A stretch of DNA of 32,000 nt from Thermodesulfobacteriota bacterium (GTDB taxonomy: Bacteria > Desulfobacterota > WTBG01 > JAGOGO01), in contig CP113000.1 of assembly GCA_026625185.1 (NCBI GenBank), positions 2,532,651 through 2,564,650 on the forward strand. The letters run 5' to 3'. The position numbers and the translations under genes were made by a program. Below, one piece after another: positions 13,191 to 32,000 of this stretch. Under the pieces are notes generated by a model. That model was given only the letters and a program-made list of their open reading frames with translations, was not told the DNA's origin and ran no database searches. Each line of letters opens with the position of its first letter. The first letter of the stretch is position 1.

Positions 13191-13224
13191 ATAAAAAAGG
13201 CCCTAGAAAATCTTCTAAGGCCTT
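13191..13224 (-). terminator. Intrinsic terminator immediately downstream of tRNA-Val
   Basis: AAGGCC-c-TAGAA-aatc-TTCTA-a-GGCCTT hairpin, followed in minus-strand sense by TTTTTTAT. Confidence 0.6.
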
Positions 13225-13236
13225 GTTTCCATTTGA

Positions 13237-13309
13237 TAGGCGGAGCAGGTTTCGAACCTACGACCTCCGGCTTGTAAGGCCGGCGCTCTCCCAGCTGAGC
13301 TATCCGCCC
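13237..13309 (-). tRNA. tRNA-Val (anticodon TAC)
   Basis: The reverse complement GGGCGGATAGCTCAGCTGGGAGAGCGCCGGCCTTACAAGCCGGAGGTCGTAGGTTCGAAACCTGCTCCGCCTA folds as a cloverleaf. The anticodon stem is CCGGC/GCCGG with loop CTTACAA. CCA is not encoded. Confidence 0.9.
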
Positions 13310-13328
13310 ATAGACGGCTTTGGCAAGT

Positions 13329-15779
13329 TTAATGGGTTACTAATTCGCCCCCCTTTTCAGCGGAGGTTTTAAAAAACTCTTCGGTGCGCTCGAATCTATC
13401 TCGTAAAAACTTTTCCGGATCATCCAGAATAAGTGCCCGCCGAAGCACTTCATCAACATGGTCCGTGAGAATAATCTTTAAGTCTTTTTTTACCCGGGGC
13501 GGTATCTCTTTAAGGTCTTTTTCATTATCACGGGGAATGATCACACAGGTAACGTTCCCGCGGTGAGCGGCAATGAGTTTTTCTTTTAATCCCCCAATGG
13601 GAAGCACTTTGCCGCGGAGGGTTATTTCTCCGGTCATCGCGATATCTTTGCGAACCGGTTTTTTGGTGACCGCGGAAGCTAATGAAGTCGCCATGGCCAC
13701 GCCCGCGGAGGGGCCGTCTTTGGGGGTCGCTCCTTCGGGGACATGGATATGTATGTCAATATTCTGGAAGAAATCTTTATCCAGCCCCAGGTGTTCCCCG
13801 CGGGAGCGGATATAGGTCCATGCCGCATGGGCGGACTCCTGCATGACATCACCGAGTTTGCCGGTCAGACGTGGCGGATTTCCTTTGCCGGGCATGACAA
13901 TCGCCTCGATGGAGAGAAGCTCTCCGCCGGCTTCGGTCCACGCCAGTCCCGTGGTCATTCCGATCTCGTCTTTTTCTTCGGTCTTGCCGTATCTGAATTT
14001 ATAAACTCCCAAATACTTGGAAATATTCTGGGCCGTAATCTGGAAGTGGCTCTCCCGGCCTTTGCGGATAACTTCCTTGGCCACTTTCCGGCAGATGGAC
14101 GCTATCTCCCGCTCCAGGTTTCTGACCCCCGCTTCCCGGGTGAAGCGTCGGATGATGGTAAGAATGCTGTTGTCAGTAAAGGTGATATTTTTCTCGGTCA
14201 AACCGTTTTCTTTTATTTGTTTCGGAATGAGAAACAGACGGGCAATGTGAAGCTTTTCATCTTCAGTGTAGCCGGGAAGCCGGATAATTTCCATCCGGTC
14301 CCGCAAAGCGGGGATAATCGGGTCCACTAAATTCGCAGTGGTAATGAACATAACCTCGGATAAGTCATAATCCACGTCGACATAGTGGTCGTTGAACGCG
14401 TGGTTTTGTTCCGGGTCCAAGACCTCAAGCAGCGCCGCCGAAGGGTCGCCACGGAAATCCGCGCTCATCTTATCCACTTCATCGAGGAGAAAAACCGGGT
14501 TATTGGAGCCAGCCTTCTTGAGCCCCTGGAGAATTTTTCCGGGTAAAGCTCCGATATAGGTACGCCGATGACCCCGGATTTCAGCCTCATCTCGAACCCC
14601 GCCTAAGGAGAGACGGACAAAGTTTCTCCCGGTGGCCCGGGCAATAGACTTAGCTAACGAAGTCTTACCCACTCCCGGCGGGCCAACAAAACATAGGATG
14701 GGGCCTTTGAGTTTTTCCACCAGACCCTGAACCGCTAAATACTCCAAGATGCGTTCTTTAGGGTCTTTAAGTCCGTAGTGGTCTTCTTCGAGGATCTGGG
14801 TTGCTTCATCAATATTGAGCTTGGTTTCGGTTTTTTCAAACCAGGGAAGCGAGAGCATCCAGTCGATGTAGTTTCTTACCACGGTAACTTCTGCGGACAT
14901 GGGAGGCATCATCTTTAGCTTCTTGAATTCCTTTTTTACCTTGTCGGTTGCTTCTGGGGACATCTTTTTCTTTTTTATCTGTTCCTCGAGGTCTTTGAGT
15001 TCGGTGGTCATATCATCCCGGTCGCCCATTTCCTTTTGGATAGCCCGCATCTGCTCGGAAAGATAGTATTCCTTTTGAGTTTTCTCCATTTGTTTTTTGA
15101 CGCGGTTGCGGATTTTTTTCTCGATCTCGAGGATTTCGATTTCTCCCTCCATAAAGCTGTAGAGTTTTTCCAGCCGTTCCTTCCCGTTTTCTATTTCCAA
15201 AAGTTTTTGTTTGTCCTCCAGCTTTAAGGTGAGGTGAGCGGCAATCGTATCCGTAAGCCGGTTGGGTTCATCGATCGTGCTGACGGAAACCAGCATCTCG
15301 GGAGGAACTTTTTTACTCAGCTTGACATAGTTTTCGAAGGTGGAGTGCGCGCGCCGCATCAGGGCTTCAACCTCAGGGGTGATCTCGGTAGCGTCTTCAA
15401 TTTCTCTCACGTAAACCTGAAAGAAATCAGGATGAGGTAAAAACTCCTGGATGACTCCGCGTTTTTTCCCTTCGACTAAGACCTTTACTCCTCCATCGGG
15501 AAGCCGAAGGAGTTGGAGGACTGTTCCCAAGGTGCCGACACTATGGATGTCGTCTTCAGAGGGATTGTCATCCTTGGCTTTTATTTGGGTGGCTAAAAAG
15601 ACAAGTTTTTCTTTGTTCAAGGCTTCTTCCAAAGCCTTTATGGACTTGGCGCGGCCGACAAAAAGGGGAACAACCATATATGGAAAAAGCACGATATCCC
15701 GCAACGGCAAAAGGGGATACGTTTTTTCTTTTTCCCGATCAAACGGTACCAGCTGGTCTTTTTGGTTTTTGAAAATCAT
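13329..15779 (-). CDS. lon: ATP-dependent Lon protease (endopeptidase La)
   Basis: 816 aa with a LON N-domain ([23 protein letters not shown]), an AAA+ Walker A (GPPGVGKTS) and the protease motif [11 protein letters not shown] with catalytic Ser. Confidence 0.95.
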
Positions 15780-15790
15780 TTTCGTATGAC

Positions 15791-17044
15791 CTATGCGGAT
15801 TTTATTTCTTTTTCATACATGAGAAGGGGGGATTCCCTCTTTAAGACTACTTCTTCATTAATAATGCATTCCTTAATGTTTGACTGTGAGGGAATATCAA
15901 ACATCAGATCGAGCATGATGTCTTCCATAATAGACCGTAGACCCCGCGCCCCGGTTTTGCGCTTGTTTGCTTGTTGAGAAATTGCCGAGAGCGCTCCCTT
16001 TGTGAAGCGTAGCTTAACATTTTCAAAGGAAAACATGGTCTGATACTGTTTGACTAAAGCGTTCTTGGGCTCAACCAGGATCTGCATCAGGGCTTCCTCA
16101 GAAAGCTCACTTAAGGTGGCGATCACCGGCAGACGGCCGATCAGCTCTGGGATCAGGCCATACTTGAGCAAATCCTCGGGCTGAATCTCGTTTAAAATTT
16201 TTCCGACTTTTCTTTCCTTTTTGCTTACAACATTACCCATAAACCCCATTGAGCTATGGCCTAAACGCTTTTCTATAATATCTTCAACCCCGTTAAACGC
16301 CCCACCGCAGATAAAAAGAATGTTCGTTGTATCAACCTGGAGAAAATCTTGCTGGGGATGTTTTCTACCGCCCTTGGGGGGAACATTTGCAATGGTTCCT
16401 TCAATAATTTTGAGAAGCGCCTGCTGCACGCCTTCCCCGGAAACATCACGGGTGATGGACGGTGAATCCGTTTTCCGGGAAATTTTATCAATCTCATCAA
16501 TGTAAATAATTCCTTTAGTGGTCCGCTCGATATCGTAATCCCCGGCCTGGAGGAGACTGAGAATGATGTTTTCGACATCTTCACCCACGTAGCCCGCTTC
16601 GGTAAGCGTTGTGGCATCAGCAATAGTGAAAGGCACATTGAGGATCTTTGCCAAGGTCTGTGCTAACAGGGTTTTGCCGGTTCCCGTCGGGCCGACCAAA
16701 AGGATATTGCTTTTCTGGAGCTCCACATCACTGACTGACTTTTTGGCCTCGATCCGTTTATAGTGGTTGTGCACCGCGACCGAAAGAATTTTTTTCGCTC
16801 GTTCCTGACCGATCACGTACTCGTCAAGGGTCTTTTTGATTTCTGCTGGTTTGGGTATCGTGGTGCTTTTCCGGGTCGCATCTTCTTTTTCATATTCTTC
16901 AGCGATGATATCATTGCAGAGTTCAATGCACTCATCACAGATATAGACCGAAGGGCCGGCGATCAGTTTTTTTACCTCATCCTGGCTTTTGCCGCAGAAC
17001 GAACAGAAGAGGTTGTTGTATTTATCGGAGCCTTTTTTACTCAC
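15791..17044 (-). CDS. clpX: ATP-dependent Clp protease ATP-binding subunit ClpX
   Basis: 417 aa with an N-terminal zinc finger ([11 protein letters not shown]...[10 protein letters not shown]), Walker A GPTGTGKT and the GYVGEDVEN pore loop. Confidence 0.95.
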
Positions 17045-17672
17045 TACTTTTTTCTCCTTTGTTCAGGATGGATTTGAGGTCCATAACCACGTGGGGATTT
17101 TTCTCGATCACCGCGTCAATGATGCCGTATTTTTTTGCTTCGTCGCCACTCATGAAATAATCCCGCTCGGTATCTTGCTGAATTTTTTCCAAAGGCTGGT
17201 TGGTGTGTCTGGTCAAGATCATGTCCAGTTCCTTCCTCATCCTGAGTATTTCACGGGCATGGATGTCGATATCCGTGGCTTGGCCCTGAATTCCGCCCAA
17301 CAGCTGATGGATTAAGATGCGGGAGTGGGGTAACGCGAAACGCTTACTCGGAGAGCCAGCCGCAAGCAGTAAAGCGCCCATGCTTGCCGCTTGTCCGAGG
17401 CAGATGGTGCACACATTAGGTTTTATATACTGCATGGTATCGTAGATCGCTAACCCTGCGGTCACGATACCTCCGGGAGAATTCAAATAAAGATAAATAT
17501 CTTTATCCGGATCTTCGGACTCCAGAAAAAGCATCTGGGCAATGATTAAGTTAGCGATGGTATCATCGATGGGGGTTCCCAGGAATATAATTCTGTCTTT
17601 TAAAAGTCGTGAATAAATATCATAAGCCCGTTCACCGCGGCTGGTCTGCTCGATCACAATGGGTACCAGCAT
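17037..17672 (-). CDS. clpP: ATP-dependent Clp protease proteolytic subunit ClpP
   Basis: 211 aa with [32 protein letters not shown] and the catalytic context [11 protein letters not shown]. It overlaps the clpX start by 8 nt. Confidence 0.95.
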
Positions 17673-17692
17673 CAGAAAATAGTCCTCCTTTG

Positions 17693-18982
17693 TTAAGATT
17701 TCTTTCGATCCACTGAAATTAGTTTAGCTTTTTCAGCAAGAAACGCAAGGGTTTTCTCCTCCAAGACTTTGGACTTGATCCGGTCTTTAGCCTCTTGCCC
17801 TGAGTGCTGTTCACTATCTTCCTCCGCGTCAGGAGACATATTTTTAAGATACGCTTTTATCTCCGATGGGTCAACTTCTATTCCTTCTCTTTTTGCTATA
17901 TCGGAAAGAAGGAAAGAACGCTTTACCTGAAATTCAGCGATCGGACGATAGGCTTCTTTAAGTTCCCGGTTCATCATGGGTGAGGAATCCATTTTGATTC
18001 CTTGGTTGGTCATCTGGGAACGCGCGTGATAAATTAAAAATTCAGTCTGTCGTTCAACCAAGGAGGGCGGAACGTCAAAGGGGTTATTTTCCAGAATTTT
18101 TTGGAGAAGATTATTATACATGGTAGAGCGGATGCGCTCTTCTTCCCTCCGAGTGATTTCTGTTTTTAAGTGGTCCTTAAGCACGGCCAGGGTTTCAAAC
18201 TCACCGACGTCACGGGCAAAATTATCATCCAGAGGAGGGGTAATTTTTTCTTTTATTTCTTTTATTGTTACATCAAACGTTATAGTTTTTCCAGCAAACT
18301 CCTTTTGTCCAAAATCTTCGGGAGTGGTAACAACAATTTCCCGGTTAGCTCCTGATCTTAACCCGATTAATTGGTTAGTAAATCCAGGGAGAAAGCTTTC
18401 GGGGGTGATTTCAATCAACCGATCCAGGACTTTCCCGCCTTTCAGAGGTTCTTTCTCAATGGTTCCGGCATAGTCAATGACCACGAAATCTCCGGAACGA
18501 ATAGAACGATCTTCCTCAACCGTTTTTAGTTGAGCGTGATAGGCGCGTATTTGCTCCAAATATTGGTTGACATCCTCTTCAGTGACCTCTAATTTTTCTT
18601 GCTCGGCTTCAATCCCTAGATAATCCCCCTTTAAATCAAGGGCAGGGGCAACCTCAACGCGGGCCGTGTACGTAAAATCTTTTTCCGGCGCGAACTTAGG
18701 GGTATCGATGATGGGAGGAGAAACAGGCAGGATGTTTGTTTCTTTAATAGCAGTTTCATAAGAGTCGCTGACGAGTTTGCTGATGACTTCGCCTTCGACC
18801 TGCTTTTTGTAAATCCTTTCCAAAACCGCGCGCGGGACCTTCCCAGGACGAAACCCTTTAATTTTTGCTGTTTTTCTCAAGTCAAAATAAAATTTCTCAA
18901 TCTCATTGCCGATACTATCCGCGGAGATTGTCACTTCGAGTTGCTTTACTACCGGGCTAATATCTTTCACTTCTTCTTTCAA
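17693..18982 (-). CDS. tig: Trigger factor
   Basis: 429 aa with the ribosome-binding signature GFRPGKVP near the N-terminus. It sits in the conserved position upstream of clpP-clpX-lon. Confidence 0.9.
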
Positions 18983-19570: not shown

Positions 19571-20365
19571 TCACTGTAAGCCTTTTAAGGCTTCTTGAAC
19601 GGAAATGCCTCGATGAACAATTTTGCTGATTGCCTCAACAATTTTTGTTGGCCTGGAGTGCTGAAAAACATTTCGTCCAATGGAAACACCCGCACCTCCT
19701 GCATCCATACAACCTTTTACCATTTTCAACACATCTTCATCAGTATCCATCTTCTCTCCACCCGCAATCACCACCGGAACAAAACAACCCTCGACAACCT
19801 TACGAAATGTTTCCGGCGATCCCGTGTAAGGAACTTTGACAATATCTGCGCCCAATTCAGCCCCAACCCGGGCAGCATGTTTTACTAGTTCCGGATCATA
19901 TTGGTTCTTGATTTTCGGGCCACGGGTGTAAATCATTGCTAAAAGGGGAAAACCCCATTTCCTTGCTTCACGAGATACCTCCCCCAAATCACTGAGCATA
20001 ATTTTCTCATCCTCAGCTCCGATATTTACATGAATCGAAACCGCGTCTGCTCCTATTTCAATCGCTTCTTCTATGGTGCAGATTAATGTTTTGGAATTCG
20101 GATCCGGAGCTAAAGAAGTGCTGGCCGACATATGAATTATAAGCCCTAAATCTTTTCCCCCTCCACGGTGACCGGTTTCCACCAAACCTTTGTGGATTAC
20201 AATCGCATTTGCTCCCCCTTCAGCTACAGCGTTGACCGTAGATTTCCAATCGACGAGTCCCTCCACCGGACCGATGCTGATTCCATGGTCCATGGGTATT
20301 ATTACCGTTTTTCCTGAATTTCGATCAATGATGCGTTCTAAGCGGATTTGTTTCCCGATTTTCAC
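19571..20365 (-). CDS. DhnA-type class I aldolase (ADH synthase AroA'/FbaB family)
   Basis: [31 protein letters not shown]...[12 protein letters not shown]...[12 protein letters not shown]...[11 protein letters not shown] (Schiff-base Lys context)...[12 protein letters not shown] prefer the GTG at 20365, which follows AGGAGG by 5 nt. The track ORF starts at the ATG at 20449, adding 28 unconserved residues. Confidence 0.8.
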
Positions 20366-20840
20366 CTTTTCCTCCTTTAAAAATGAATCAATAAATTCTC
20401 TGGTATTCAAAAATCGCCAGGTTTTTTGTAACGATGATTCAACTTGCAATTTTTAAAAAAAACTTAATCAAATCTGATTAGTTTAACTTTTCGCCCCCCA
20501 ATTGGGAAACAAAGGTGATCGCATAATAACATAAGTTATTTTTATACGCAAATGGCATAATTTTAACTCTAAATGTGGTATATGTTTTGGGTGCCGGTCA
20601 ACCTAAGGCCACGTCCATTTAAACTGCATCGAAGGATTTTGGAGTTATACCAAACATTGGCTTTATCCCTCACGGGGAGAGCCGATAAAAACTTTTCATC
20701 TTTTTCTTGGAGAAATTTAGTTCGTTTTAAACACAGAAACAGAGATTTTCCCCTTGACTTACAAATTATTAAGAAGTACTGGCTATAACAAATAAAACAA
20801 ACTTTGGTCCGGAATCATTAACCATTACCTAAAATAAAAG

Positions 20841-21668
20841 ATGACCGATTATTTTGCCGGAATCGACATCGGCTCCACCATGACCAAGGTTGTGGTCATG
20901 GATGCGGGGATCATCTCCTCGGTTATTGAGCCTACTGGCCCGGAACAGCGGAGATTGGCCCACCGGGTCATGGAAACTGCACTCCGTCAGGCTCAACTTC
21001 CTTTTGAGTCCATCACCTACCTCGTCGCCACCGGCTACGGCCGGATTAATGTCTCCTTTGCGGATAAACAACTCACCGAAATAAGTTGTCATGCCCGGGG
21101 AGTGACGCACCTTTATCCCCAGACACATACCCTCATTGATGTTGGAGGACAAGACAGCAAAGCAATCAAAATAACTGACGGCAAACCCTTTGACTTTGTT
21201 ATGAATGACAAGTGTGCGGCTGGTTGCGGAAGATTTTTAGAGGTGATCGCGGATTCCCTGGGAATCACCCTGGAAAAGATGGATAACCTATCATTGCAGA
21301 GTTTCAACCCGGCTCACGTGAGTAACCTCTGTACCGTGTTTGCGGAACAGGAGGTTGCAACGAAACTCTCGGAAGGAATACCCATTCCTGATTTGGCCGC
21401 TGGTATCCTGATATCTTTAGCTGACCGGATCGCAGCCATGGCAAAAAAAATTAAACCAACCAGGGAGGTTGTCATGACCGGCGGCGGGGCAAAAATAAAA
21501 GGCTTGGTAAACGCGCTTTCCAAAGCTCTTGGTTACCCATTACTGATCCCCTCGGAACCGTTGCTGACCGGCGCCCTAGGAGCGGCTTTGCTGGGGAAAG
21601 ATATGGTTGAGAAGGCTTTCAAGACCGGTGAGCATTTGGGGCTGGAGAAGCGTTGTTTAAAAAAATAA
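20841..21668 (+). CDS. HgdC/BcrAD/BadFG-family [4Fe-4S] ATPase (radical-enzyme activase), canonical paralog
   Basis: ASKHA motifs are present: GIDIGSTMTKVVV, DVGGQDSKAI and MTGGGAKIKG. The cluster-bridging Cys contexts NDKCAAGCGRFLE and NLCTVFAEQE are also present. Its 3' end overlaps the convergent Fe-S gene by 12 nt. Confidence 0.85.
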   Translation: MTDYFAGIDIGSTMTKVVVMDAGIISSVIEPTGPEQRRLAHRVMETALRQAQLPFESITYLVATGYGRINVSFADKQLTEISCHARGVTHLYPQTHTLIDVGGQDSKAIKITDGKPFDFVMNDKCAAGCGRFLEVIADSLGITLEKMDNLSLQSFNPAHVSNLCTVFAEQEVATKLSEGIPIPDLAAGILISLADRIAAMAKKIKPTREVVMTGGGAKIKGLVNALSKALGYPLLIPSEPLLTGALGAALLGKDMVEKAFKTGEHLGLEKRCLKK

Positions 21669-23033
21669 AGGTTGCTTAACGTTACCCCGCGTTTCTCTTC
21701 CAAGAAGCTGTGCAATATGCATAACTTTAATAGGTAACTGATGACGACGCACTCCATCCATAAGCTGGATGAGGCAGCCCGGACACGAAGTAACGACCAC
21801 TTGAGCATTGGTTTTTTTAATGGCCTCTATTTTTTTTGCCTGAATGGCAAGGCTGATTTCCCGGTGCTTTATTCCAAAGGACCCTCCTAGACCGCAACAG
21901 GTGTCTGCTCCTTTCATCTCAATAAACGTTACTCCTTCGAGGGCATGTAAAATCTTTCGGGGAGCATCGTGGATCCCCTGGTGCCAACGCAGATGGCAGG
22001 GGTCATGGTACGTTACCCGAAGCGGAAAGGCAGTGATTTGGCGAGGATTGAAACCCGGTCTAACCAGAAACTCGGAGAAATCATAAATCTTTTGGGAAAG
22101 TTCCCGGGCTTTTTCCCGGATGGGATCTTTCGGGGAAAATAAGTCGCCGTATCTTTTGAGTGCCGCGCTGCAGGTAGCGCACCCGGTAACAATAGCAGCA
22201 AAGGAAGATAATACATCAATATTCTTTCGGGCCATAAGGGTTGCTGTTTCCAAATCCCCTGCACTTTGGACTGCCAGCCCGCAACAGGTTTGTCCGAAAG
22301 GATTAACCACCTCAAAACCAGCCTCGGCCAAAGCAAAGACCATGTCTTTACCGCTATCGGCAAAAAAGAACTCCAACCCGCAACCCGGGAAAAAGGCTAC
22401 TTCACCACGCCTCTGAATACCAAAAAGAGGAAGCGTGCGCAGGGGAATGCGCTGGGAAAGAAAAGGCGAGGAGAGACGGGGGAGCGCCAGCCCCCTGGAA
22501 AAGATTGAGGCAAAGTCAGCCAAATGGCGAAGAGGTTTTCCTTCGTTGATCGAACACCCGGGAATTTTTGTGGCTAACCCCAGAAGTCTGGCTACCAGTG
22601 AGCGGTGTTTCAGGATTCCTCGGTAGACAAGTTGCTCAGTCCAGTTAAGACCTTTCTGAGTTACCAGCCGGGCCCGCGCCTGCACGGCAAGTGTTGCGGA
22701 TGATATTCTGGCCGGGCAGGTAGCCTCACATCGGCCACATAAAATGCAGAAGGAAAGGACATCCCGGTAGGTGCCTTCAGTGTTAATTTCCCCTTTGTTT
22801 GCCCACTGAATGAGCAGGTTCCTCCCCCGGGCAACATGACTTTCCATATGGTCAACACCATATACCGGGCAGGAAGACATGCAGAAGCCGCATTTCATGC
22901 AGCGGGAAGCGTCATCAACGGAAGTTAGGTAATCCATATTTTTCTGAATTTCTGTAACCCGTTGCCCGGAGCGAAGCGTGTTGAAAGCTCTTGAGTACCC
23001 ATTATGGTGAGCAGTAAGGAGCAAATGTTCCAC
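21657..23033 (-). CDS. (Fe-S) oxidoreductase, GlcF/GlpC/LutA-like (2x[4Fe-4S] ferredoxin motif plus two CCG domains)
   Basis: The ferredoxin motifs are CMKCGFCMSSCP and CILCGRCEATCP. The two Cys-rich CCG-type modules are FFPGC...QTCCG and YHDPCH...DTCCGLGG...SCPGC. It lies directly downstream of the glcD-like gene. Confidence 0.8.
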   Translation of the reverse strand: MEHLLLTAHHNGYSRAFNTLRSGQRVTEIQKNMDYLTSVDDASRCMKCGFCMSSCPVYGVDHMESHVARGRNLLIQWANKGEINTEGTYRDVLSFCILCGRCEATCPARISSATLAVQARARLVTQKGLNWTEQLVYRGILKHRSLVARLLGLATKIPGCSINEGKPLRHLADFASIFSRGLALPRLSSPFLSQRIPLRTLPLFGIQRRGEVAFFPGCGLEFFFADSGKDMVFALAEAGFEVVNPFGQTCCGLAVQSAGDLETATLMARKNIDVLSSFAAIVTGCATCSAALKRYGDLFSPKDPIREKARELSQKIYDFSEFLVRPGFNPRQITAFPLRVTYHDPCHLRWHQGIHDAPRKILHALEGVTFIEMKGADTCCGLGGSFGIKHREISLAIQAKKIEAIKKTNAQVVVTSCPGCLIQLMDGVRRHQLPIKVMHIAQLLGRETRGNVKQPLFF

Positions 23034-23099
23034 CCATAGGAACCTCAGATGGGTTACTGCAAAGGCTGTGAATTGCGGGGCAAAAGGTTTTCACAATTA

Positions 23100-24479
23100 C
23101 TACCAAATCTTTCCGGGGTTAAGAATTCCCTTGGGGTCAAAAACTTTTTTTATTTCTTTCAAAAGTTCGATGGCTTCGGCCGGCAAAGCCTGTTTCAGAA
23201 ATCTCTTTTTTTCCAAACCAATTCCATGTTCTCCGGAAAGGACTCCACCGAGATCTAAAGCCGCAGCAAATATATCGTCCAGGGCTTTCTCCGCCCGGGC
23301 ATAGTGGGCGGGATCTTTTCGATTCGTTAAAATAGCGGGATGGAGGTTCCCGTCTCCCGCATGACCAATAATGACAATAGTTAGATTGTAAGTCCGGGCA
23401 CATCTTCTGATTCTGCCGATCAATTCGGGGATCCGGTTTATAGGTACGGTAACATCTTCGGCCAACACTGTGGGAGCGTTGCCGAAAATAGCGGAAAACC
23501 CTGCCCGGCGTGCAGTCCAGAAATTTTCTGCTTCATTGGCATCACGAGCGGGCCTGACGTCAATTGCCCCGGTTTTTTTACAACAATCAACAACCCCTTC
23601 CGTTTCTTTTTTCACTGCTTCGGACATCCCATCGAGTTCAAAAAGAAGAATTGCTTCTGCTGTTAGCGGAAGCCCCAAGGGGGTTACTTCTTCGATTCGT
23701 TGGATTAACCAGTTATCCATAAGCTCGATCTTGGCCGGCATAATTCCCGAAGCAAAAATCCGTTGGACAGTTTCTCCTGCAGTCACGACATTATCAAAGA
23801 CGGCAAGTACGGTCTGGTGTGCCTGGGGAAGGGGTAAGAGCCTCAGGGTAACCTGGGTTATAACCGCTAACGTTCCCTCGGAACCGCAGATGAGTTGAGG
23901 GAGATCATACCCGGTTACGTTCTTCATGGTCTTTCCACCCAGATCAATGATAGTACCAGAAGGAAGGACGGTCCGCATTCCCAGAAGGTAATGTTTAAAA
24001 ACCCCGTATTTAACCGCATAAGGACCGCCGGCGTTTTCCGAAACGCAGCCCCCAAGGGTAGCGGCCAAGAAACTTTGCGGGTCAGGAGGGAAAAAAAGCC
24101 GATGCTTGACGAGTTCCTGGTTTAGGTCATGGAGTACCACCCCCACCTCAGCGGTTGCGCTAAAATTAGCCGCATTAATTGCAATGATCCTGTTCATACG
24201 GGTGGTGCAGAGAACAATACCCCCGAGGACTGGAATCGAACCTCCACTGACATTGGTGCCTGCACCACGCACGGTAACCGGGATAACGTCCTGAGTGGCA
24301 AGTTTCATAATCTCTGAAACCTGGTCAGTGGTGGTCGGAAAAACGACGACCTCCGGCTTTGCCTCCCAATTGGTGGTACCGTCATACGAATAGGTGAGTA
24401 AGTCCACGGGGGAGGTAAGCACACCTTTCTCCCCCGCGATTTTTCGAAGCCTTTCAGTAGTGCCTTTGGGAAGCCCCAT
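23100..24479 (-). CDS. FAD-linked oxidase, GlcD / D-lactate (D-2-hydroxyacid) dehydrogenase-like
   Basis: 459 aa with an FAD_binding_4 pattern (VVVFPTTTDQVSEIMKLA...PVTVRGAGTNVSGGSIP) and a C-terminal FAD-oxidase_C pattern (GHAGDGNLHP...GVLSGEHGIGLEKK...DPKGILNPGK). Confidence 0.85.
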   Translation of the reverse strand: MGLPKGTTERLRKIAGEKGVLTSPVDLLTYSYDGTTNWEAKPEVVVFPTTTDQVSEIMKLATQDVIPVTVRGAGTNVSGGSIPVLGGIVLCTTRMNRIIAINAANFSATAEVGVVLHDLNQELVKHRLFFPPDPQSFLAATLGGCVSENAGGPYAVKYGVFKHYLLGMRTVLPSGTIIDLGGKTMKNVTGYDLPQLICGSEGTLAVITQVTLRLLPLPQAHQTVLAVFDNVVTAGETVQRIFASGIMPAKIELMDNWLIQRIEEVTPLGLPLTAEAILLFELDGMSEAVKKETEGVVDCCKKTGAIDVRPARDANEAENFWTARRAGFSAIFGNAPTVLAEDVTVPINRIPELIGRIRRCARTYNLTIVIIGHAGDGNLHPAILTNRKDPAHYARAEKALDDIFAAALDLGGVLSGEHGIGLEKKRFLKQALPAEAIELLKEIKKVFDPKGILNPGKIW

Positions 24480-24888
24480 AATTTCTCTTTTTTTTGTTGG
24501 TTTGCTGTTCCTGCGGTTTCTTCATATAATAAAATCATATCTGAATTCGGGCGATTCTGCAATGCCTTCTGATTAACGCACCCAAACCATTGAAGCCATC
24601 AGAGAGAATGAAGGTGATTTCTCAGTTTTTTTAATATGATAGATAGGATGACAATATTCATTAATTCAAGGCAACGTTAAAAACACACCCCAGTTTACCA
24701 GAGACGGGTTGTCAAAAGATTTTGCAGAGGCTAAACTTAACTTTTCGTGATGGTGCTTAAGTGCTTTACCTTCCGACAAGTAACCTATTAGAATTATGAA
24801 CAAATTACTTTTTCTGGTTCAACGGTGAGGAGGTTTTTTTCTCTCTTCGCCTTGGTAAATTTTTGAAAATATCGAAATCGTTATTTCC

Positions 24889-24917
24889 TTGACAAAAAAG
24901 TAATTATTTGATATAAA
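24889..24917 (+). promoter_or_regulatory. Near-consensus sigma-70 promoter for the MBL-activase-dehydratase operon
   Basis: TTGACA (24889-24894), a 17-nt spacer, then TATAAA (24912-24917). Confidence 0.6.
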
Positions 24918-25076
24918 AATTATTTTTTTATGGCAAAAATCATTATTTTAAGTATTCGAAGGGATTTTTGCAAGAACATAAGCTTTAGAACCAATATGAT
25001 TTTGATTCGCAGGGAAATTTGCCGGCATAAAAACCTCTCGAACGTCAGGTGCAAAACAAACAAGGAGAAAAAAACA

Positions 25077-26006
25077 TTGAACGAAAAAACATTCAAGCCA
25101 ATTAAAGCTACCCAAACCTTTTACCAGCTGGGCACCTCTTCCTTTCCAGCCTATTTATCCCTGGGCGAAAAAGGGATGATCATTGAAGGAGGTACCGGCG
25201 CAACCTTCAAAATCATAGTAAACCAAATCGAAGAGTTGGGTATTGACCCGAACCGGATTCAATTTATTGTTTTAACGCATACCCACGCCGACCATATCGG
25301 TGCAGTCCCCCGTTTAAAAAGTATCTGGCCCCATGTAAAAGTTTTAGCAAGCCCGGTAGCAGCCAAGACCGTGAGTAAAAAAGAGATGTATGAAGACTTC
25401 CTTTGCACCGACCAAGCTATTGCGGAGATCCTGAAAGGCAAAGGAGATATCGCTACATTACCACCGACACTGCAAGATTATTCTTTTGCCGTTGACCAGG
25501 TCCTTAAAGATGGTGATACGATAGATTTGGGTGCTGGGATTTCCTGGACCGTTTACCATGCCCCCGGACATTCCCCCTGCCACATTGCCTTGTTTGAAGC
25601 AAAAGAAGGAACCCTCGATATTGGTGATTCGACCGGTTTTTATGTTCCAGAAAAAGACGTTTTTTGGCCAAATTACTTTGAGTCACTGGAAAAATACTGC
25701 GATAGTATCCGCAAACTTTCTTCGATTCCTGCTCAAAGGATTGTTTTGAGTCATAACTGCGTGATCGAGGGGGGAGTTAAAAAGCATTTTGAAAAGGCGC
25801 TCAAGGCAACCCAACACTACCATCAGGACCTCATCAGAAGAGTAGAAGCTGGCGAAGATTCAGAAGCAATCGCTTTAGAAAAAGCTCAGTGGGTAAGCAG
25901 CCTCACCGATATCCTCCCTTTTGAGGCAATAGTTAGTCTGGCCAAACTCCTGATAAAACGTTCCCAACAAGAAGTTGAAAAACCAAAGTTGTTTATCTTC
26001 GAATAG
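25077..26006 (+). CDS. MBL-fold metallo-hydrolase
   Basis: The metal motif LTHTHADHIG is followed by HAPGHSP and downstream D/H ligand positions (DSTG, SHN). I prefer the TTG at 25077, which follows AAGGAGA by 8 nt. The track ORF begins at the ATG at 24930, but its first 49 aa are basic, low-complexity and AT-driven. Confidence 0.75.
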   Translation: MNEKTFKPIKATQTFYQLGTSSFPAYLSLGEKGMIIEGGTGATFKIIVNQIEELGIDPNRIQFIVLTHTHADHIGAVPRLKSIWPHVKVLASPVAAKTVSKKEMYEDFLCTDQAIAEILKGKGDIATLPPTLQDYSFAVDQVLKDGDTIDLGAGISWTVYHAPGHSPCHIALFEAKEGTLDIGDSTGFYVPEKDVFWPNYFESLEKYCDSIRKLSSIPAQRIVLSHNCVIEGGVKKHFEKALKATQHYHQDLIRRVEAGEDSEAIALEKAQWVSSLTDILPFEAIVSLAKLLIKRSQQEVEKPKLFIFE

Positions 26007-26109
26007 GCAGATCCGGTTCAGGTTCTTTGAACTGATCGAACGGTGTCACTCCCTTCCCGTTCAGGAAATGTCCCGTTAGCTTTAACCCCAAAGCAAGATT
26101 TAAAAAAAA

Positions 26110-26892
26110 ATGAGCGTATATGCGGCAGGGATTGATATCGGGTCAGCATTTTCCAAAGGAGTCATTTTTAAAAACAAACAGACTTTGGGTTTTTGTTGCA
26201 TTCCCTCGGGAGGAGATTATAGGGCGACTGCTGAGAAAATAAAAAAAGAACTGCTTTCTAAAACCGGCCTCTCTTCACCTGCGCCAATTTTTACGGTAGC
26301 GACTGGTCTGGGCGCAAAGATGGTAGGTTTTGCTGATGTAATCAGAACTGAATTATCCTGCCATGCAAGAGGAATTATCACTATTTTCCCTTCCGTAAGA
26401 ACAGTTGTGGATATTGGCGATTCTTACAGTAGAGCGTTGCGGATTGATGAACACGGCCATCTCTTAAAATTTTTATTGAGTGGTAAGTGTGCCGGAGGAA
26501 GTGCAAGGATCTTAAAAAAAATTGCCAAAATTTTACAGGTAAAACTCGAGGAGTTGGGGCCCCTGTCATTGCGTTCCCAAAAACAGGTTGATTTTAACAC
26601 CAACTGTGCCGTTTTTGCTGAGTCGGAGGCAGTATCCCGGATTGCGGAAGGAGCCTCCAAGGAGGACCTTTTGGCCGGAATACACCGAGCGTTAGCAGCT
26701 CAAGTCAATAATCTTGCCGAACGGGTTGGAATAGAAAAGGACTATGCATTGGTTGGTGGGGGAGCAAAAGATGAAGGTCTGGTTAAGGCAGTGGAGTTGA
26801 TGAACGGCTTTAACCTTGTGGTGCCGTCTGAACCCCTTCTTACGGCTGCACTCGGCGCTGCAATTCTTGCGGAAGAAATGGCACCAGCCTAA
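26110..26892 (+). CDS. HgdC/BcrAD-family ATPase, divergent paralog
   Basis: It has GIDIGSAFSKGVI, Cys contexts SGKCAGGSARIL and NTNCAVFAESE, and LVGGGAKDEG. The phosphate-2 motif reads DIGDSYSRAL instead of D(I/V)GGQD. Confidence 0.8.
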   Translation: MSVYAAGIDIGSAFSKGVIFKNKQTLGFCCIPSGGDYRATAEKIKKELLSKTGLSSPAPIFTVATGLGAKMVGFADVIRTELSCHARGIITIFPSVRTVVDIGDSYSRALRIDEHGHLLKFLLSGKCAGGSARILKKIAKILQVKLEELGPLSLRSQKQVDFNTNCAVFAESEAVSRIAEGASKEDLLAGIHRALAAQVNNLAERVGIEKDYALVGGGAKDEGLVKAVELMNGFNLVVPSEPLLTAALGAAILAEEMAPA

Positions 26893-26925
26893 CCGGTTAC
26901 TTAAAAGCGTTTTTAAAAGGAGAAA

Positions 26926-28092
26926 ATGTTAATGGAAGAAAAGCAAAAAGGCATGTGGCCATTGGTGGAAAAGTATTACCAGGACTACGGCAGCCGGGCG
27001 AGAGAACTAAAAAAGGATGGGATAAAGTTTATGGGATATATCTGTTCCTTTGTTCCGGTTGAAATTATCCGGGCTGCCGGTTTTGTTCCTTTTAGGATCA
27101 GGGGCAACGTGCATGAGCCGATCACCAAAGGTAATACTCAGTTGGAAACTATTGCCTGTCCTTTTATGCGAAGTTGTTTCGATCTTTCCTTCAAAGGACA
27201 CTACGACTTTTGTGAAGGGGTTATTATACCCCACGCCTGCGACAGCATGACCAGGTCTTACAGTGTATGGAAGTATTCACTCGGACTTCCCTATTCTCAT
27301 TTTGTTAATGTCCCGCACACCGTCAACGCAGCCTCACTCCAGTTTTTTGAGGCCGAGCTTAATACCTTTCGAAAAAGCTTAGGGAGGTATGCGGGTAAAG
27401 AGATCAACACGGCAGAAATTGCTCAGGCTATTACCGCCTATAACCAACTGCGAAAAAAAGTTAAAGCCCTTTACGAGCTCCGGAAGACCAATCCCCCTCT
27501 GGTCTCAGGAACGGAGATGGCAAAGTTGCTCACGGTAACGGCCGGGCTTCCAGTGGAAGAAGCCAACCTCCTCTGCGATCAAGCCCTTGACCAACTGCCC
27601 CAGCGCACCGCGCCTTCCGACAAAAAGTTCCCCCGGATTCTGATTGATGGTGCCTGCATTGACAACATCGATCTTGTGCAACTTGTTGAAGAGAGTGGTG
27701 CCAGCGTAGTGGCCGATGACCTCTGTCTGGGCATGCGGGACTTTTGGCCAACCACTGACGTAGACCAGGATCCCCTCAAGGCGCTCAGCCGCCGTTATCT
27801 TGAGAAGTTGAACTGCCCCCGTACCTTTCGGCAGAGCCCGGGAGGGAGCCTGTCTGATGACCTGCAGGCGCGGTTCGGAGATATGGGGGCGCACATCAAA
27901 GAGTTCGGGGTTGACGGGATTATTATCTATGTTTACAAATACTGTGATCCCTTCGGCTTTGAGGTTTCAGCCCGCAAGGCCTACCTAAGCTCCCTGGGGG
28001 TCAGCATCCTTTACCTTGAGGACGAGTACTCGGCCGGTACCATTGGCCGCCTGAGGACTAGGATTCAGGCATTTCTGGAAATGATGGGGTAA
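26926..28092 (+). CDS. HGD-D family subunit, BcrC/BzdN/HgdB-like
   Basis: 388 aa with family Cys contexts IACPFMRSC, PHACDSM and YKYCDPFGFE, and the C-terminus LEDEYS. An alternative ATG at 26932 has better SD spacing. Confidence 0.8.
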   Translation: MLMEEKQKGMWPLVEKYYQDYGSRARELKKDGIKFMGYICSFVPVEIIRAAGFVPFRIRGNVHEPITKGNTQLETIACPFMRSCFDLSFKGHYDFCEGVIIPHACDSMTRSYSVWKYSLGLPYSHFVNVPHTVNAASLQFFEAELNTFRKSLGRYAGKEINTAEIAQAITAYNQLRKKVKALYELRKTNPPLVSGTEMAKLLTVTAGLPVEEANLLCDQALDQLPQRTAPSDKKFPRILIDGACIDNIDLVQLVEESGASVVADDLCLGMRDFWPTTDVDQDPLKALSRRYLEKLNCPRTFRQSPGGSLSDDLQARFGDMGAHIKEFGVDGIIIYVYKYCDPFGFEVSARKAYLSSLGVSILYLEDEYSAGTIGRLRTRIQAFLEMMG

Positions 28093-28201
28093 AACAGAAG
28101 GGGTGAACTGCCGGAACAGTGGAGTCGTGGGAAAAACGAACCCATACCCCATTATCCCCAATACATGAGAAGAAGTACTATTATGATGGAGGTTTTTATT
28201 T

Positions 28202-29602
28202 ATGGCTGAGGAGCAGAAGAAGAACGAAAATCAAAAACGAAGAACCGCCACTAAGGCTGCATCCATGATTGGTCCGATGGTTAAGGAATTGATCGCCGCC
28301 ACCCATCGCGCCAAAGCAGAGGGAAAGAAACTCGCCTATACTTTTATCTCCTGTCACTACGAAGAAATCGTCCGGGCGATGGATGTCGTGCCGGTGTGGA
28401 CAGAGAATTTTGCGGGAATCTGCGGAGCAAAGCGTGATGCCGAGAGATTCCTTTCCCGGGCCGAGTCCCTCGACTTTTCCCGATCCCTGTGTTCCTATGC
28501 CCTGTGTGGTATTGGATTTGATCAGTGGCGTGAAGATCTCGGAGAAATGCCCCCCGATCCCCCCTGGGGGGGACAGGGCCGGCCGGATATGATGCTCTCC
28601 AGCGGCCAGATTCTCTGTGACCCCCGCAACAAATGGTATCAGGCAGCGCAGCAGTTCATGCCCGATGTCCCCAACTATAACTTCAGCATCCCCTGGCCTC
28701 TTTATGATGATGATATCGAGCTGACAGAAATCGAGCCTTATTACATCAAGTACATTGTCTCGGAATTAAAGGGCCTCATCGCCTTTCTGGAAACCCAAAC
28801 CCAGAAGAGAATGGATTACGACCGCTTGGGGGAACTGGTGAATCTCACCGAGCGCACCTGGAATATGATCTGGGAGACTTACGAGCTCCGGCGCGCTGTG
28901 CCCACCCCGATGGATACCGGCGACGCGATGAACACTATGGTGCCCTGGGCATTCATGATGGCCACCCAGGAGAGCTATAACTTCTTCGCTGAGTTAAACC
29001 GGGAGCTTAAAGAAAAAATTGCCAGAAAGGAAGGAGTTATCAAAGATGAGAAATATCGGTTGCTCTGGGGCGGAGGCCTTCCCGCCTGGTTTGCGCTCAA
29101 GGATTTCAACTATTTTAACAGCAAAGGTGCGGTGTTCCCGGTAGAGACCACCTACCGTTTAATTGAACCGATTTACCGCCTCAACATTCCTGATACCAAT
29201 GACCCACTGGAACGGATCGCCTACCGCTGGTTTCGTTACTGGACCTATATGTACGACAAAGCCAAGAAAAGGCCGGGCTCGGAACCGGACGTGGAGCGCC
29301 TGATTCAGTTCATTGAGGATTATAAGATAGACGGGGTGGTAATGCACGAAGCCTTTTCCTGCCGCACCTGGCACCTCGGCCTAATCTGGCAGCTCAGCCA
29401 GCTCAAGAAAATCTATAAGCCGGTGCCGTTCCTCACCATAGGGCCGGATGGCACCAAAAATGTGGAACACCGGGAGCTGCCCACCCTGATACTGGAAAGT
29501 GATATCATCGACATCAACTCCTATTCCGAGGCGGATACCCGGAATCGCATTGATGCCTTTATCGAGACCCTGGAATCAATCAAGAAACAGCGGGAAAATT
29601 AA
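28202..29602 (+). CDS. HGD-D family subunit, BcrB/BzdO/HgdA-like
   Basis: 466 aa; GGAGG lies 9 nt upstream of the ATG. Motifs include SLCSYALCG, RPDMMLSSGQILCDPRNKW, EKYRLLWGGGLPAW, IDGVVMHEAFSCRTWHLG and LESDIIDINSYSEADTRNRIDAFIETL. Confidence 0.8.
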   Translation: MAEEQKKNENQKRRTATKAASMIGPMVKELIAATHRAKAEGKKLAYTFISCHYEEIVRAMDVVPVWTENFAGICGAKRDAERFLSRAESLDFSRSLCSYALCGIGFDQWREDLGEMPPDPPWGGQGRPDMMLSSGQILCDPRNKWYQAAQQFMPDVPNYNFSIPWPLYDDDIELTEIEPYYIKYIVSELKGLIAFLETQTQKRMDYDRLGELVNLTERTWNMIWETYELRRAVPTPMDTGDAMNTMVPWAFMMATQESYNFFAELNRELKEKIARKEGVIKDEKYRLLWGGGLPAWFALKDFNYFNSKGAVFPVETTYRLIEPIYRLNIPDTNDPLERIAYRWFRYWTYMYDKAKKRPGSEPDVERLIQFIEDYKIDGVVMHEAFSCRTWHLGLIWQLSQLKKIYKPVPFLTIGPDGTKNVEHRELPTLILESDIIDINSYSEADTRNRIDAFIETLESIKKQREN

Positions 29603-31116: not shown

Positions 31117-32000
31117 ATGAAGTTCGACTTTACCGAAGAACAAAAATCAATGATGGAGGTTGGGCGGGATTTTGCGGAAAAAGATATCCTTCCCACTCAA
31201 GAAGAGGATGAAAAAGCACATCATTTTCGTAAAGAAACCTTTAAAAAGATGGCGGAATTGGGTTTTTTTGGGTGCGTTATTCCCGAAAAATATGGCGGCA
31301 ATGAGACCGGGCACCTGTGCGCTGCTTTGTTAACCGAAGAGATTGCTCGGGTGAGCGCTTCCTGGACGTTGCCTTTTAATATGCAGATGTGGGGACCCGC
31401 GTTTACTATTCTTAACTATGGCAATGAAGAACAGAAGGAAAAGTATATTCCCGCATTAGTGAACGGCGATGTGATTGGTGCGTTTGCCATTACGGAACCG
31501 AATTCCGGTTCGGATGTGGCTGGCATGGGAACCACGGCAACGGAAACTGATGACGGGTATATTTTGAACGGGCAGAAGATGTGGATTTCAAACGCCCAAA
31601 CAGCGGATATGTCGTTAGTATATGCATATACAGATAAGGCGAAAAAGCACAAAGGCATTTCCTGCTTTTTAGTTGATATGAAAAACAATCCGGGCATCAA
31701 AACTGCGGCGATTGAGACCAAACTCGGACTTTTTTGCGCCCCTACAGGAGAAATAGCTTTTGAAGACGCGAAAATTCCGAAATCAGCTCTCCTGGGACAA
31801 AAGGGCGATGGTTTTAAGATCTGCATGTGGCAACTCAATAACACCCGTTTGGGTTGCGCTGCTCGCGGGGTGGGAATCGCCCGCGGCTGTCACGAACATG
31901 CAATCAAGTATGCTTTGGAGAGAACTCAGTTTGGTCAACCTATTGCTGAATTTGAGATGATCCAGGATCAACTCGCCCTGATGTACGTGGAGTATGAGGC
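31117..32000 (+). CDS. Acyl-CoA dehydrogenase, 3'-partial (runs off the right edge)
   Basis: ATG at 31117 follows AAGGAG. My translation is MKFDFTEEQKSMMEVGRDFAEKDILP...GAFAITEPNSGSDVAGMGTTA...GYILNGQKMWISNA...FGQPIAEFEMIQDQLA, the classic ACAD pattern. It is absent from the ORF track because there is no in-window stop. Confidence 0.9.
   Translation, partial: MKFDFTEEQKSMMEVGRDFAEKDILPTQEEDEKAHHFRKETFKKMAELGFFGCVIPEKYGGNETGHLCAALLTEEIARVSASWTLPFNMQMWGPAFTILNYGNEEQKEKYIPALVNGDVIGAFAITEPNSGSDVAGMGTTATETDDGYILNGQKMWISNAQTADMSLVYAYTDKAKKHKGISCFLVDMKNNPGIKTAAIETKLGLFCAPTGEIAFEDAKIPKSALLGQKGDGFKICMWQLNNTRLGCAARGVGIARGCHEHAIKYALERTQFGQPIAEFEMIQDQLALMYVEYE

Follow-up and report, generated by a model that had tools for sequence, protein, structure and literature searches.

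We analysed a 32,000-nucleotide stretch of the genome of a Thermodesulfobacteriota bacterium (GenBank assembly GCA_026625185.1, contig CP113000.1, positions 2,532,651 to 2,564,650 of the forward strand; hereafter the window) and, within it, seven genes at 20841–29602 that encode a predicted radical enzyme of two subunits, two ATPases and three helper proteins. As judged from its sequence, this locus is a conserved, uncharacterised variant of the benzoyl-CoA reductase (BCR)/2-hydroxyacyl-CoA dehydratase/double-cubane cluster protein (DCCP) superfamily with a newly recognised partner module, and it lies outside every characterised BCR or dehydratase family. Nitrogenase apart, this superfamily is where biology chiefly uses ATP to inject an electron at very low potential; to our knowledge, substrates have been established for only a few members. 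We are fairly confident that the seven genes form one functional unit, and consider it probable that the core enzyme acts on a CoA thioester by ketyl-radical chemistry; the fuller proposal, of a superfamily member whose three conserved helpers complete a route from an enoyl-CoA or 2-hydroxyacyl-CoA to a 2-hydroxyacid and then to a 2-oxoacid, we give an even chance of being correct. Of the interpretation offered in the first-pass annotation, a model's reading of the bare sequence, the unmatched gene set and its mixed look were upheld, and the genes do recur together elsewhere, but the island location, a separate extra ATPase paralogue and a glyoxalase II were not.

The window proteins were scored against Pfam and NCBIfam, with equivalog status decided by the curated NCBIfam cut-offs, and these comparisons bore out the positions and domains first given for all seven genes. 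The forward strand carries an ATPase of the BcrAD_BadFG family (ATPase2; 20841–21668, 275 residues) and, further along the same strand, an operon of four genes. The operon is led by a PqsE-like metallo-β-lactamase (MBL)-fold hydrolase (25077–26006; Pfam Lactamase_B), followed by a divergent ATPase paralogue (ATPase1; 26110–26892, 260 residues, PF01869), 4.4 kb beyond the end of ATPase2, a small HGD-D subunit of BzdN/DCCP-like type (N'; 26926–28092, 388 residues) and a large HGD-D subunit, the predicted active-site subunit (O'; 28202–29602, 466 residues). The reverse strand holds a protein with two [4Fe-4S] sites and two CCG domains (the CCG protein; 21657–23033, 458 residues; Pfam CCG twice and Fer4_8) and a GlcD-like FAD dehydrogenase (23100–24479, 459 residues; Pfam FAD_binding_4 and FAD-oxidase_C). 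O' is identical to WAC06986.1, and the same locus is present in GCA_029216075.1.

The best match of N' among solved structures was BzdN (161 bits). Its residues C40, C78, C105, C267, C297 and C340 align with BzdN Cys36, Cys73, Cys100, Cys263, Cys293 and Cys327, the six ligands of the [8Fe-9S] double cubane in the BzdNO structure (PMC11971306); all six are invariant in 68 N' orthologues, in which the remaining cysteines are variable, and N' is predicted to be the carrier of a double cubane of this kind. The NCBIfam scores of N' were nevertheless all below the cut-offs, at 207 bits for DCCP (cut-off 350), 162 for BzdN (454) and 146 for HadC (700).

In BzdO, the active-site residues comprise an acid/base pair, Glu65/His131, and two thioester-binding tyrosines, Tyr97 and Tyr298 (PMC11971306). 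Identity between O' and BzdO is low, at about 20% (57 bits); E68 of O' aligns with Glu65, Y99 and Y318 align with Tyr97 and Tyr298, and C97, C139 and C387 align with BzdO Cys95, Cys128 and Cys380. In place of His131 O' has an arginine, R142, that does not vary among the orthologues, and BzdO Gln274 is not conserved, aligning with Gly/Leu. MbdO too is without the His131 of BzdO, and therefore this residue may not define the whole Bzd/Mbd type. From this alignment we predict that O' is the active-site subunit and holds, on three cysteines, a [4Fe-4S] cluster with one open coordination site.

The NCBIfam scores of O' were 76 bits for BzdO (cut-off 449), 85 for HadB (750) and 67 for DCCP (350). 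An AlphaFold2 model of O', made from an alignment of 110 diverse relatives, reached a predicted local distance difference test score (pLDDT) of 94, an alignment of 26 sequences having given a pLDDT of 56 and been discarded. Foldseek searches with this model returned template-modelling (TM) scores of 0.78 for BzdO, 0.80 for MbdO and 0.76 for HadB, values that are about equally close and leave reductase and dehydratase undistinguished. The small-then-large order of the two subunit genes had been taken as BCR-like; with O' equally near to all three structures, it argues only weakly for a reductase. An exhaustive HMMER search of 1.84 billion representatives of clusters at 50% identity gave 139 with E<1e-30, every one of them nearer to O' than BzdO is. 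None of the 110 nearest full-length representatives reached a curated cut-off, the best values being 1e-92 for HadB and 2e-66 for BzdO. The clade is thus uncharacterised, as is all of the sequence space around it.

The two ATPases are 39% identical to one another, and both pass the HgdC/BcrAD ('archerase') domain test with the two [4Fe-4S]-bridging cysteines in place. ATPase2 (PF01869, 206 bits; TIGR00241, 267 bits against a cut-off of 125) is canonical, with an intact DVGGQD motif and its cluster cysteines in KCAAGCG and CTVFAEQE. ATPase1 (152 and 199 bits, respectively) keeps both cluster cysteines, but its phosphate-2 motif reads DIGDSYS instead of DIGGQD. The form D[VI]GD[LS][YH][ST]K was found in all readable upstream ATPase1 orthologues (29 of 39), and the downstream ATPases carry GGQD; MbdP, the divergent subunit of a true BCR, retains DIGGQT. 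The degenerate motif of ATPase1 suggests that the ATPases form a heterodimer in which a single ATP site would be competent. Comparison with solved structures did not discriminate between the known types, because HadI and MbdQ gave similar scores for each of the two ATPases; the best relatives of ATPase2 were HadI (219 bits) and MbdQ (216 bits), and HadI was the best for both. Against BzdQ the ATPases scored 146 and 132 bits, compared with a cut-off of 380.

The statement that this set of genes corresponds to none of the characterised bcr, bzd, mbd, hgd, had, fld or lcd clusters has held, because every curated equivalog cut-off was missed. The NCBIfam models concerned were BzdN, BzdO, BzdQ, BcrA-D, HadB, HadC and DCCP, all missed by a wide margin (BcrB, 70 bits against a cut-off of 487; BcrC, 126 bits against 421), and the NCBIfam matches included no model for Hgd, Fld or Lcd. 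The mixed look that had been remarked upon, a BCR-like architecture in the company of dehydratase-pathway-like partners, is likewise real, and three known systems may be compared with it.

BzdNOPQ (Azoarcus type, PDB 8s02) and the 3-methylbenzoyl-CoA reductase MbdONQP (PDB 9g87/9gai) have the same four-subunit make-up, with two HGD-D-fold subunits and two unlike HgdC-type ATPases. The six [8Fe-9S] cysteines of N' and, in O', the three cysteines and the counterparts of Glu65, Tyr97 and Tyr298 are shared with these enzymes, and BzdN, BzdO and MbdO were the best or joint-best solved matches of N' and O'. However, the order here is ATPase–N–O–ATPase rather than NOPQ, O' is without His131 and Gln274, and the GGQD loop of ATPase1 is degenerate where MbdP keeps GGQT. 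In addition, no gene for a ferredoxin, BzdV/KGOR, dienoyl-CoA hydratase, Had or Oah was found in the window or in the related loci examined.

The dehydratases HadBC (with the activator HadI), Hgd, Fld and Lcd have the same fold, and the HadB and HadI matches described above speak for this likeness, as do the partner genes, which point to (R)-2-hydroxyacids. Set against HadC, however, N' has two extra double-cubane cysteines (C40 and C267); Had-type systems have one homodimeric activase rather than two ATPases, and a β subunit with a single [4Fe-4S] cluster, whereas here there is no CoA transferase, an MBL leads the operon, and the dehydrogenase is an FAD/FeS enzyme (GlcD/CCG) and not the usual NAD-dependent one. 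The third system, DCCP/DCCP-R (PDB 6eno, 7yyl) of the Escherichia coli YjiM/YjiL type, gave N' its best NCBIfam score and shares with it the six-Cys motif and an HgdC-type ATPase as electron donor. DCCP is, however, a homodimer of one subunit served by one ATPase, whereas N' falls below its cut-off and is paired with a distinct O' that has a thioester-binding site.

The best solved homologue of the MBL is PqsE, the 2-aminobenzoylacetyl-CoA thioesterase of Pseudomonas aeruginosa, with which it aligns from end to end, C-terminal helices included (72 bits, residues 18–292). The HTHADH sequence (the HxHxDH metal motif), H165 and D184 are invariant in the family. The first-pass annotation had proposed a glyoxalase II, an assignment that must be abandoned since TIGR03413 gave 44 bits against a cut-off of 201 and the best solved homologue is PqsE rather than GloB; the protein is instead a candidate acyl-CoA thioesterase. 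Its likeness to PqsE is distant, and the contexts differ, quinolone synthesis for the one and a radical-enzyme operon for the other. At four of the related loci collected in scans for O' or MBL homologues (to which the L-numbers used here refer), namely L165, L169, L171 and L154, the MBL homologues bear a long extension fused to their C-terminus, which brings them to about 850–870 residues in total.

The GlcD-like protein matched LctD (311 bits), glycolate oxidase (307), LDHD (247) and D2HGDH (179) among solved structures and scored 464 bits against a cut-off of 568 for TIGR00387. It is, by these matches, a putative FAD-dependent D-2-hydroxyacid dehydrogenase, most like D-lactate dehydrogenase or glycolate oxidase. 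The CCG protein, whose matches in the Protein Data Bank (PDB) are the CCG domains of HdrB, was below the cut-offs of all its NCBIfam models (LdhH, 306 bits, cut-off 800; TfrB, 197; GlpC, 176; GlcF, 138, cut-off 333) and is likely to be the electron-transfer partner of the GlcD-like dehydrogenase. Both LctD, from the lactate dehydrogenase/electron-transferring flavoprotein (LDH/Etf) complex of Acetobacterium woodii, and GlcDEF share the fold, and the partner here is an FeS/CCG subunit of the GlcF/GlpC/HdrD type. Compared with GlcDEF, however, the GlcD and GlcF cut-offs are missed and there is no GlcE gene, and compared with LDH/Etf there is no Etf inside the cluster. When the whole window was scanned, its only two ferredoxin-type CxxCxxCxxxCP motifs lay inside the CCG protein; the earlier statement that genes for a ferredoxin, a CoA ligase or transferase, a dienoyl-CoA hydratase or ring cleavage are absent stands for 20.4–30.1 kb, where none was found.

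In order to place the core of the cluster among its relatives, the large subunit was used in a scan of one genome per species, which gave 303 loci with relatives, and neighbourhoods were analysed in 76 species loci. More than 870 O' homologues were detected, of which the best 120 are 70–97% identical. The best 80 of the 303 loci belong to Desulfobacterales, Desulfatiglandales, Syntrophaceae (including Syntrophus buswellii) and Syntrophorhabdus, together with single Dehalococcoidia and Myxococcota metagenome-assembled genomes. The conserved order, on one strand, is ATPase1–N'–O'–ATPase2; among the loci analysed, 72 have ATPase2 directly after O' and 39 have ATPase1 before N'. The canonical ATPase 4.4 kb upstream of ATPase1 was thus correctly placed in the first reading, on the correct strand, but it is not a separate extra paralogue; as its usual place directly after O' shows, it is the displaced fourth gene of this unit. 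Loci of a Desulfobacteraceae group (L008–L030) have the order small–large–ATPase2 only, beside a transglycosylase-like gene and a class I aldolase gene, with neither ATPase1 nor an MBL within 10 kb. The four-gene unit, which S. buswellii and S. aciditrophicus both carry, is preceded in Syntrophaceae by a Liv-type ABC transporter and a fatty-acyl-CoA ligase, and in Desulfatiglandales-type loci it lies beside a GlcD–CCG fusion, a CoA ligase and a thiolase.

The first-pass annotation had held that genes never found together elsewhere would point to chance; all seven were found together in another Thermodesulfobacteriota lineage, and the trio of MBL, GlcD and CCG genes was found with HGD-D and ATPase genes in Chloroflexi-type loci. 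The full set occurs in L004–L006 and L013 in the order MBL–ATPase1–small–large–ATPase2, followed by convergent CCG and GlcD genes. The order in the window is a cyclic permutation of this one, with the ATPase2/CCG/GlcD block upstream of the MBL gene, and is common to related strains (L087–L090 and L097). In L070 the MBL gene lies inside the operon (ATPase1–MBL–N'–O'–ATPase2).

In the Chloroflexi-type loci the order is aminotransferase–MBL–H411–ATPase (254 residues), then convergent CCG and GlcD genes, and the orthologues of the trio are 62% (MBL), 62–65% (CCG) and 72–73% (GlcD, also in L004) identical to those of the window. H411 is a HadB-like HGD-D protein of 411 residues (HadB, 235 bits), only 22% identical to O'. 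The 3' ends of the CCG and ATPase2 genes of the window overlap convergently by 12 bp (21657–21668), and the ATPase and CCG genes of the Chloroflexi-type loci overlap in the same way. A metagenome scan with the MBL gave 79 loci, among which nine had the order MBL–ATPase1–N'–O'(–ATPase2), 21 had MBL–H411–ATPase and six had MBL–ATPase–CCG–GlcD without an HGD-D gene. An ATPase or HGD-D gene directly followed the MBL in 30 of the 50 loci with enough downstream sequence, and a GlcD homologue lay within 7 kb in 9 of 19 MBL loci; the neighbours of MBL-only loci were heterogeneous, with no recurrent partner. Loci L112, L117, L122, L136, L137, L157 and L091 have aminotransferase–MBL–ATPase with convergent CCG–GlcD and no HGD-D gene between MBL and ATPase, and the ATPase therefore stays with the trio even where no radical enzyme is adjacent. 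In L101 (SDBU01019407.1), distant N- and O-like genes (31% and 25% identical) lie on the opposite strand directly upstream of MBL–H411–ATPase, and a single MBL thus has radical enzymes of both kinds next to it. A GlcD-type dehydrogenase is linked in at least four gene arrangements, which include non-orthologous forms, namely a Desulfatiglandales-type GlcD–CCG fusion (38% identical) and a same-strand GlcD that is 41% identical (L095/L123-type).

In the mechanism that we propose, the ATPase pair would take one electron onto its bridging [4Fe-4S] cluster, and ATP hydrolysis, probably by ATPase2 only, would drive this electron into N' and then into the cluster of O', where it would turn the thioester carbonyl of the acyl-CoA into a ketyl radical anion. 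The radical enzyme would thereby combine a 2-enoyl-CoA with water to give an (R)-2-hydroxyacyl-CoA; the MBL thioesterase would release the D-2-hydroxyacid and CoA, and GlcD/CCG would oxidise the acid to a 2-oxoacid, passing the electrons to quinone or a disulfide. In Chloroflexi, the adjacent aminotransferase could carry the 2-oxoacid on to an amino acid. The shared chemistry would be that of (R)-2-hydroxyacyl-CoA because the same trio accompanies both the BCR-like N'O' pair and the HadB-like H411 with its single ATPase, and because no other chemistry has a place for an HGD-D radical enzyme, a hydrolase resembling CoA thioesterases, a D-2-hydroxyacid dehydrogenase and, in Chloroflexi, an aminotransferase together. 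Since the trio also serves that single-subunit enzyme, we lean slightly towards a redox-neutral hydration or dehydration by N'O' rather than a net reduction. The direction from enoyl-CoA to 2-oxoacid is suggested because there is no ligase or transferase in the window and because the hydrolase and flavin dehydrogenase steps would be effectively one-way.

Several observations weigh against this proposal. We know of no dehydratase with two unlike ATPases and a double cubane, an architecture that belongs to ATP-stoichiometric reductases. The trio is a minority neighbour in the O'-centred loci (MBL in 4 of 76 and separate GlcD and CCG genes in 2 of 76), and therefore many carriers must keep it elsewhere in the genome or need none; moreover, six Chloroflexi-type loci hold MBL–ATPase–CCG–GlcD with no HGD-D gene. 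The transporter and ligase of the Syntrophaceae loci suggest catabolism of an imported acid, which is the opposite direction. The thioesterase role of the MBL has the 72-bit match to PqsE as its sole basis, and a literature search found no paper on the O' clade or the seven-gene set, and no biochemical or expression data.

The strongest rival is a genuine ATP-stoichiometric reductase, analogous to class I BCRs, acting on a substituted aryl-CoA, a dienoyl- or alicyclic-CoA, or a 2-hydroxyacyl-CoA by reductive α-dehydroxylation; the MBL would then be a product or rescue thioesterase, and GlcD/CCG would work on a later or parallel intermediate. We consider this unlikely, but a net-reductase role is kept alive by the double cubane and the pair of ATPases. 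The operon of N' and O' conserves two ATPases that are unlike each other, a six-Cys double cubane is so far known only in BzdN/MbdN-type reductases and DCCP, and BzdN is the best solved match of N'. The carriers, too, belong to taxa well known for degrading aromatic compounds and fatty acids anaerobically (Syntrophus, Syntrophorhabdus, Desulfatiglandales and Desulfobacteraceae). However, the Bzd and Bcr equivalog cut-offs are all widely missed, the His131 of BzdO is replaced by Arg, and the ferredoxin, BzdV/KGOR, dienoyl-CoA hydratase, Had and Oah genes are missing from every context examined. The linked ligase is of the fatty-acyl type and not the benzoate type, and the same trio also works with a single-subunit, HadB-like enzyme to which no double-cubane subunit is joined. 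In addition, a stoichiometric ATP cost fits poorly with syntrophs at the energetic limit (textbook background; see also PMC5736913).

Two enzymes of related anaerobes bear on this comparison. THNCoA reductase of N47 and NaphS2 is a class-I-BCR-like enzyme of strictly anaerobic Desulfobacterota, and we considered whether it might be the same system. Its genes, however, carry the annotation of genuine N, O, P and Q genes of the bzd type, and the published thn layout, NOPQ with a ferredoxin, BzdV and β-oxidation genes, differs from the one found here; on layout and description the two were set apart, and the difference counts against a reductase of that kind. In Desulfococcus biacutus, acetone induces two-subunit BCR-like proteins that have been linked to a pathway with 2-hydroxyisobutyryl-CoA (PMC8084838). 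These are a possible relative, likened by description only, but their neighbours, a thiamine diphosphate (TDP)-dependent enzyme, a B12 mutase and a Zn-dependent dehydrogenase, are absent from the loci considered here.

A second rival, which we think improbable, makes GlcD/CCG the source of electrons. The pair would oxidise a D-2-hydroxyacid such as D-lactate, and the ferredoxin-like 2x[4Fe-4S] domain of the CCG protein would reduce the HgdC-type ATPase in place of a ferredoxin or flavodoxin, the ATPase then pushing the electrons uphill into the radical enzyme. This reading is suggested by the conserved adjacency of ATPase and CCG genes, with their convergent and overlapping 3' ends in both phyla, and by the six loci that hold MBL–ATPase–CCG–GlcD without an HGD-D gene. 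No version of the cluster has a ferredoxin or flavodoxin gene, the only ferredoxin motifs of the window being those of the CCG protein, and the ATPase2–CCG–GlcD block has moved as one piece in this genome. However, the pyruvate/lactate couple, at about −190 mV (textbook), lies far above what an activase cluster usually needs and would be tolerable for catalytic priming only. Convergent genes, moreover, are not co-transcribed, most N'O' loci have no GlcD nearby, and in loci of the L095/L123 type a GlcD paralogue occurs with no CCG subunit. A chance juxtaposition of a BCR-like operon with an ordinary D-lactate dehydrogenase (GlcD and FeS/CCG) and an unrelated MBL is very unlikely: GlcD+CCG D-lactate dehydrogenases are common in sulfate reducers (textbook background), most O'-centred loci have no MBL or GlcD within 10 kb and, in 20 of the 50 informative loci, the MBL is not followed by a radical-enzyme gene, but the orthologous trio lies beside HGD-D and ATPase genes in two phyla and at least four gene orders, L070 has its MBL inside the operon, and non-orthologous forms of GlcD have been recruited repeatedly.

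Within the enoyl-CoA to 2-oxoacid route, two substrates are candidates: acryloyl-/lactoyl-CoA, because GlcD is most like D-lactate dehydrogenase, and glutaconyl-/2-hydroxyglutaryl-CoA, because a downstream gene marginally passes a model for non-decarboxylating glutaryl-CoA dehydrogenase. That gene, recognised from its translation as the 5' part of an acyl-CoA dehydrogenase gene (31117–32000, + strand), runs off the window. The full-length copy in the related strain locus L087 scored 472 bits against a cut-off of 470 for NF045552, which models the Desulfococcus-type non-decarboxylating glutaryl-CoA dehydrogenase. In L087, where the sequence continues (12916–18145), the gene is followed by genes for EtfB, EtfA, a 663-residue FeS/CCG protein with a QmoC-like N-terminus and a 71-residue biotin carrier. 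An acyl-CoA dehydrogenase gene next to the cluster was seen in this species only, and its functional tie to the cluster is uncertain. We did not accept the adjacency as proof of a glutaconyl-CoA substrate, given its restriction to this species and a GlcD nearer to D-lactate dehydrogenase than to D2HGDH, and kept that substrate as a candidate only.

The divergent intergenic region between the GlcD–CCG operon and the MBL-led operon (24480–25076) contains a promoter-like element and an AAGGAG ribosome-binding site, and had no match to an Rfam family; across the window, Rfam matched tRNAs only. The element, TTGACA-17 nt-TATAAA at 24889–24917 (+), was read from the sequence; our promoter scanner demands T as the final base of the second hexamer and hence did not list it. 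The near-consensus promoter described ahead of the operon is therefore present, but promoter-like matches in the region numbered 13 against 11.7 expected, which is not above chance, and the same was true of the terminator scan. The start of the MBL gene also had to be corrected. The longest open reading frame (ORF) spans 24930–26006, whereas the TTG at 25077, preceded by AAGGAG at 25062–25067, gives a protein of 309 residues, as in the NCBI annotation. The later start is the most likely one, because 24930 lies only about 13 nt past the −10 element while 25077 has a ribosome-binding site.

The first-pass annotation had called the cluster island-borne, a description that we reject: it is flanked by housekeeping genes (tig-clpP-clpX-lon and an ADH synthase), no integrase or transposase gene was found in the window with Pfam, and members of the family are common across these lineages. 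The region has tRNA genes to either side (six in the window), and related strains share the same gene arrangement. The GC content of the region, 0.43–0.52 against 0.39–0.52 elsewhere in the window, is unremarkable. The rest of the window holds housekeeping and regulatory genes by Pfam (Hsp20, a TPR protein, Lon, ClpP, trigger factor, the ADH synthase and others); a 417-residue ORF at 15791–17044 (−), between lon and clpP, occupies the clpX position, an assignment by position alone. The ADH synthase gene (19571–20449, −) is divergent from ATPase2; its product is above the NCBIfam cut-offs for 2-amino-3,7-dideoxy-D-threo-hept-6-ulosonate synthase and marks the archaeal-type DKFP route to aromatic amino acids.

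Other genes of the window deserve brief mention. An acetoin-type pair at 1475–4056 (−), consisting of an acetolactate-synthase-like thiamine pyrophosphate enzyme (578 residues) and an α-acetolactate decarboxylase (282 residues), looks unusual for a Thermodesulfobacteriota genome; TDP-dependent enzymes, of the same kind as the acetolactate-synthase-like one, have been proposed as acetone activators in sulfate reducers (PMC8084838). A partner-switching module at 5367–9210 (+) comprises a STAS protein, an anti-sigma-type kinase (HATPase_c_2), an NMT1/THI5-like binding protein and a dCache-HAMP-SpoIIE phosphatase. An ORF of 485 residues at 11503–12960 (−), in a stretch with a GC content of 0.39–0.41, had no Pfam match at E≤1e-5.

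The clade to which this enzyme belongs is large, with relatives of O' in 303 species genomes and 139 representatives at 50% identity closer to it than any solved enzyme is, and O' is very strongly conserved, at 70–85% identity across orders. Its carriers are the organisms chiefly responsible for turning over carbon anaerobically in sediments, digesters and hydrocarbon seeps. Features so far known separately are combined here, namely a double cubane of the BzdN type, two unequal ATPases of which one no longer has the canonical nucleotide loop, and 2-hydroxyacid partners, and the conserved MBL/GlcD/CCG trio narrows the substrate candidates to short 2-hydroxyacyl-, enoyl- or dicarboxylyl-CoA esters. 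We can suggest, tentatively and as something rather less than probable, that strict sediment anaerobes of the Thermodesulfobacteriota and Chloroflexota possess a widespread and hitherto undescribed route in which the 2-hydroxyacyl-CoA pathway of amino-acid fermentation is reversed: ATP-primed ketyl-radical hydration of an enoyl-CoA, performed in Thermodesulfobacteriota by an enzyme of full BCR architecture (double cubane and unequal ATPase pair), would be pulled by the MBL and GlcD/CCG to a 2-oxoacid and on to an amino acid. The enzyme would then be the first double-cubane enzyme for such chemistry, or else a new reductive α-dehydroxylase. If the reverse 2-hydroxyacyl-CoA route is real, it would provide strict anaerobes with a new link from intermediates of β-oxidation or the benzoyl-CoA pathway to the central 2-oxoacids.

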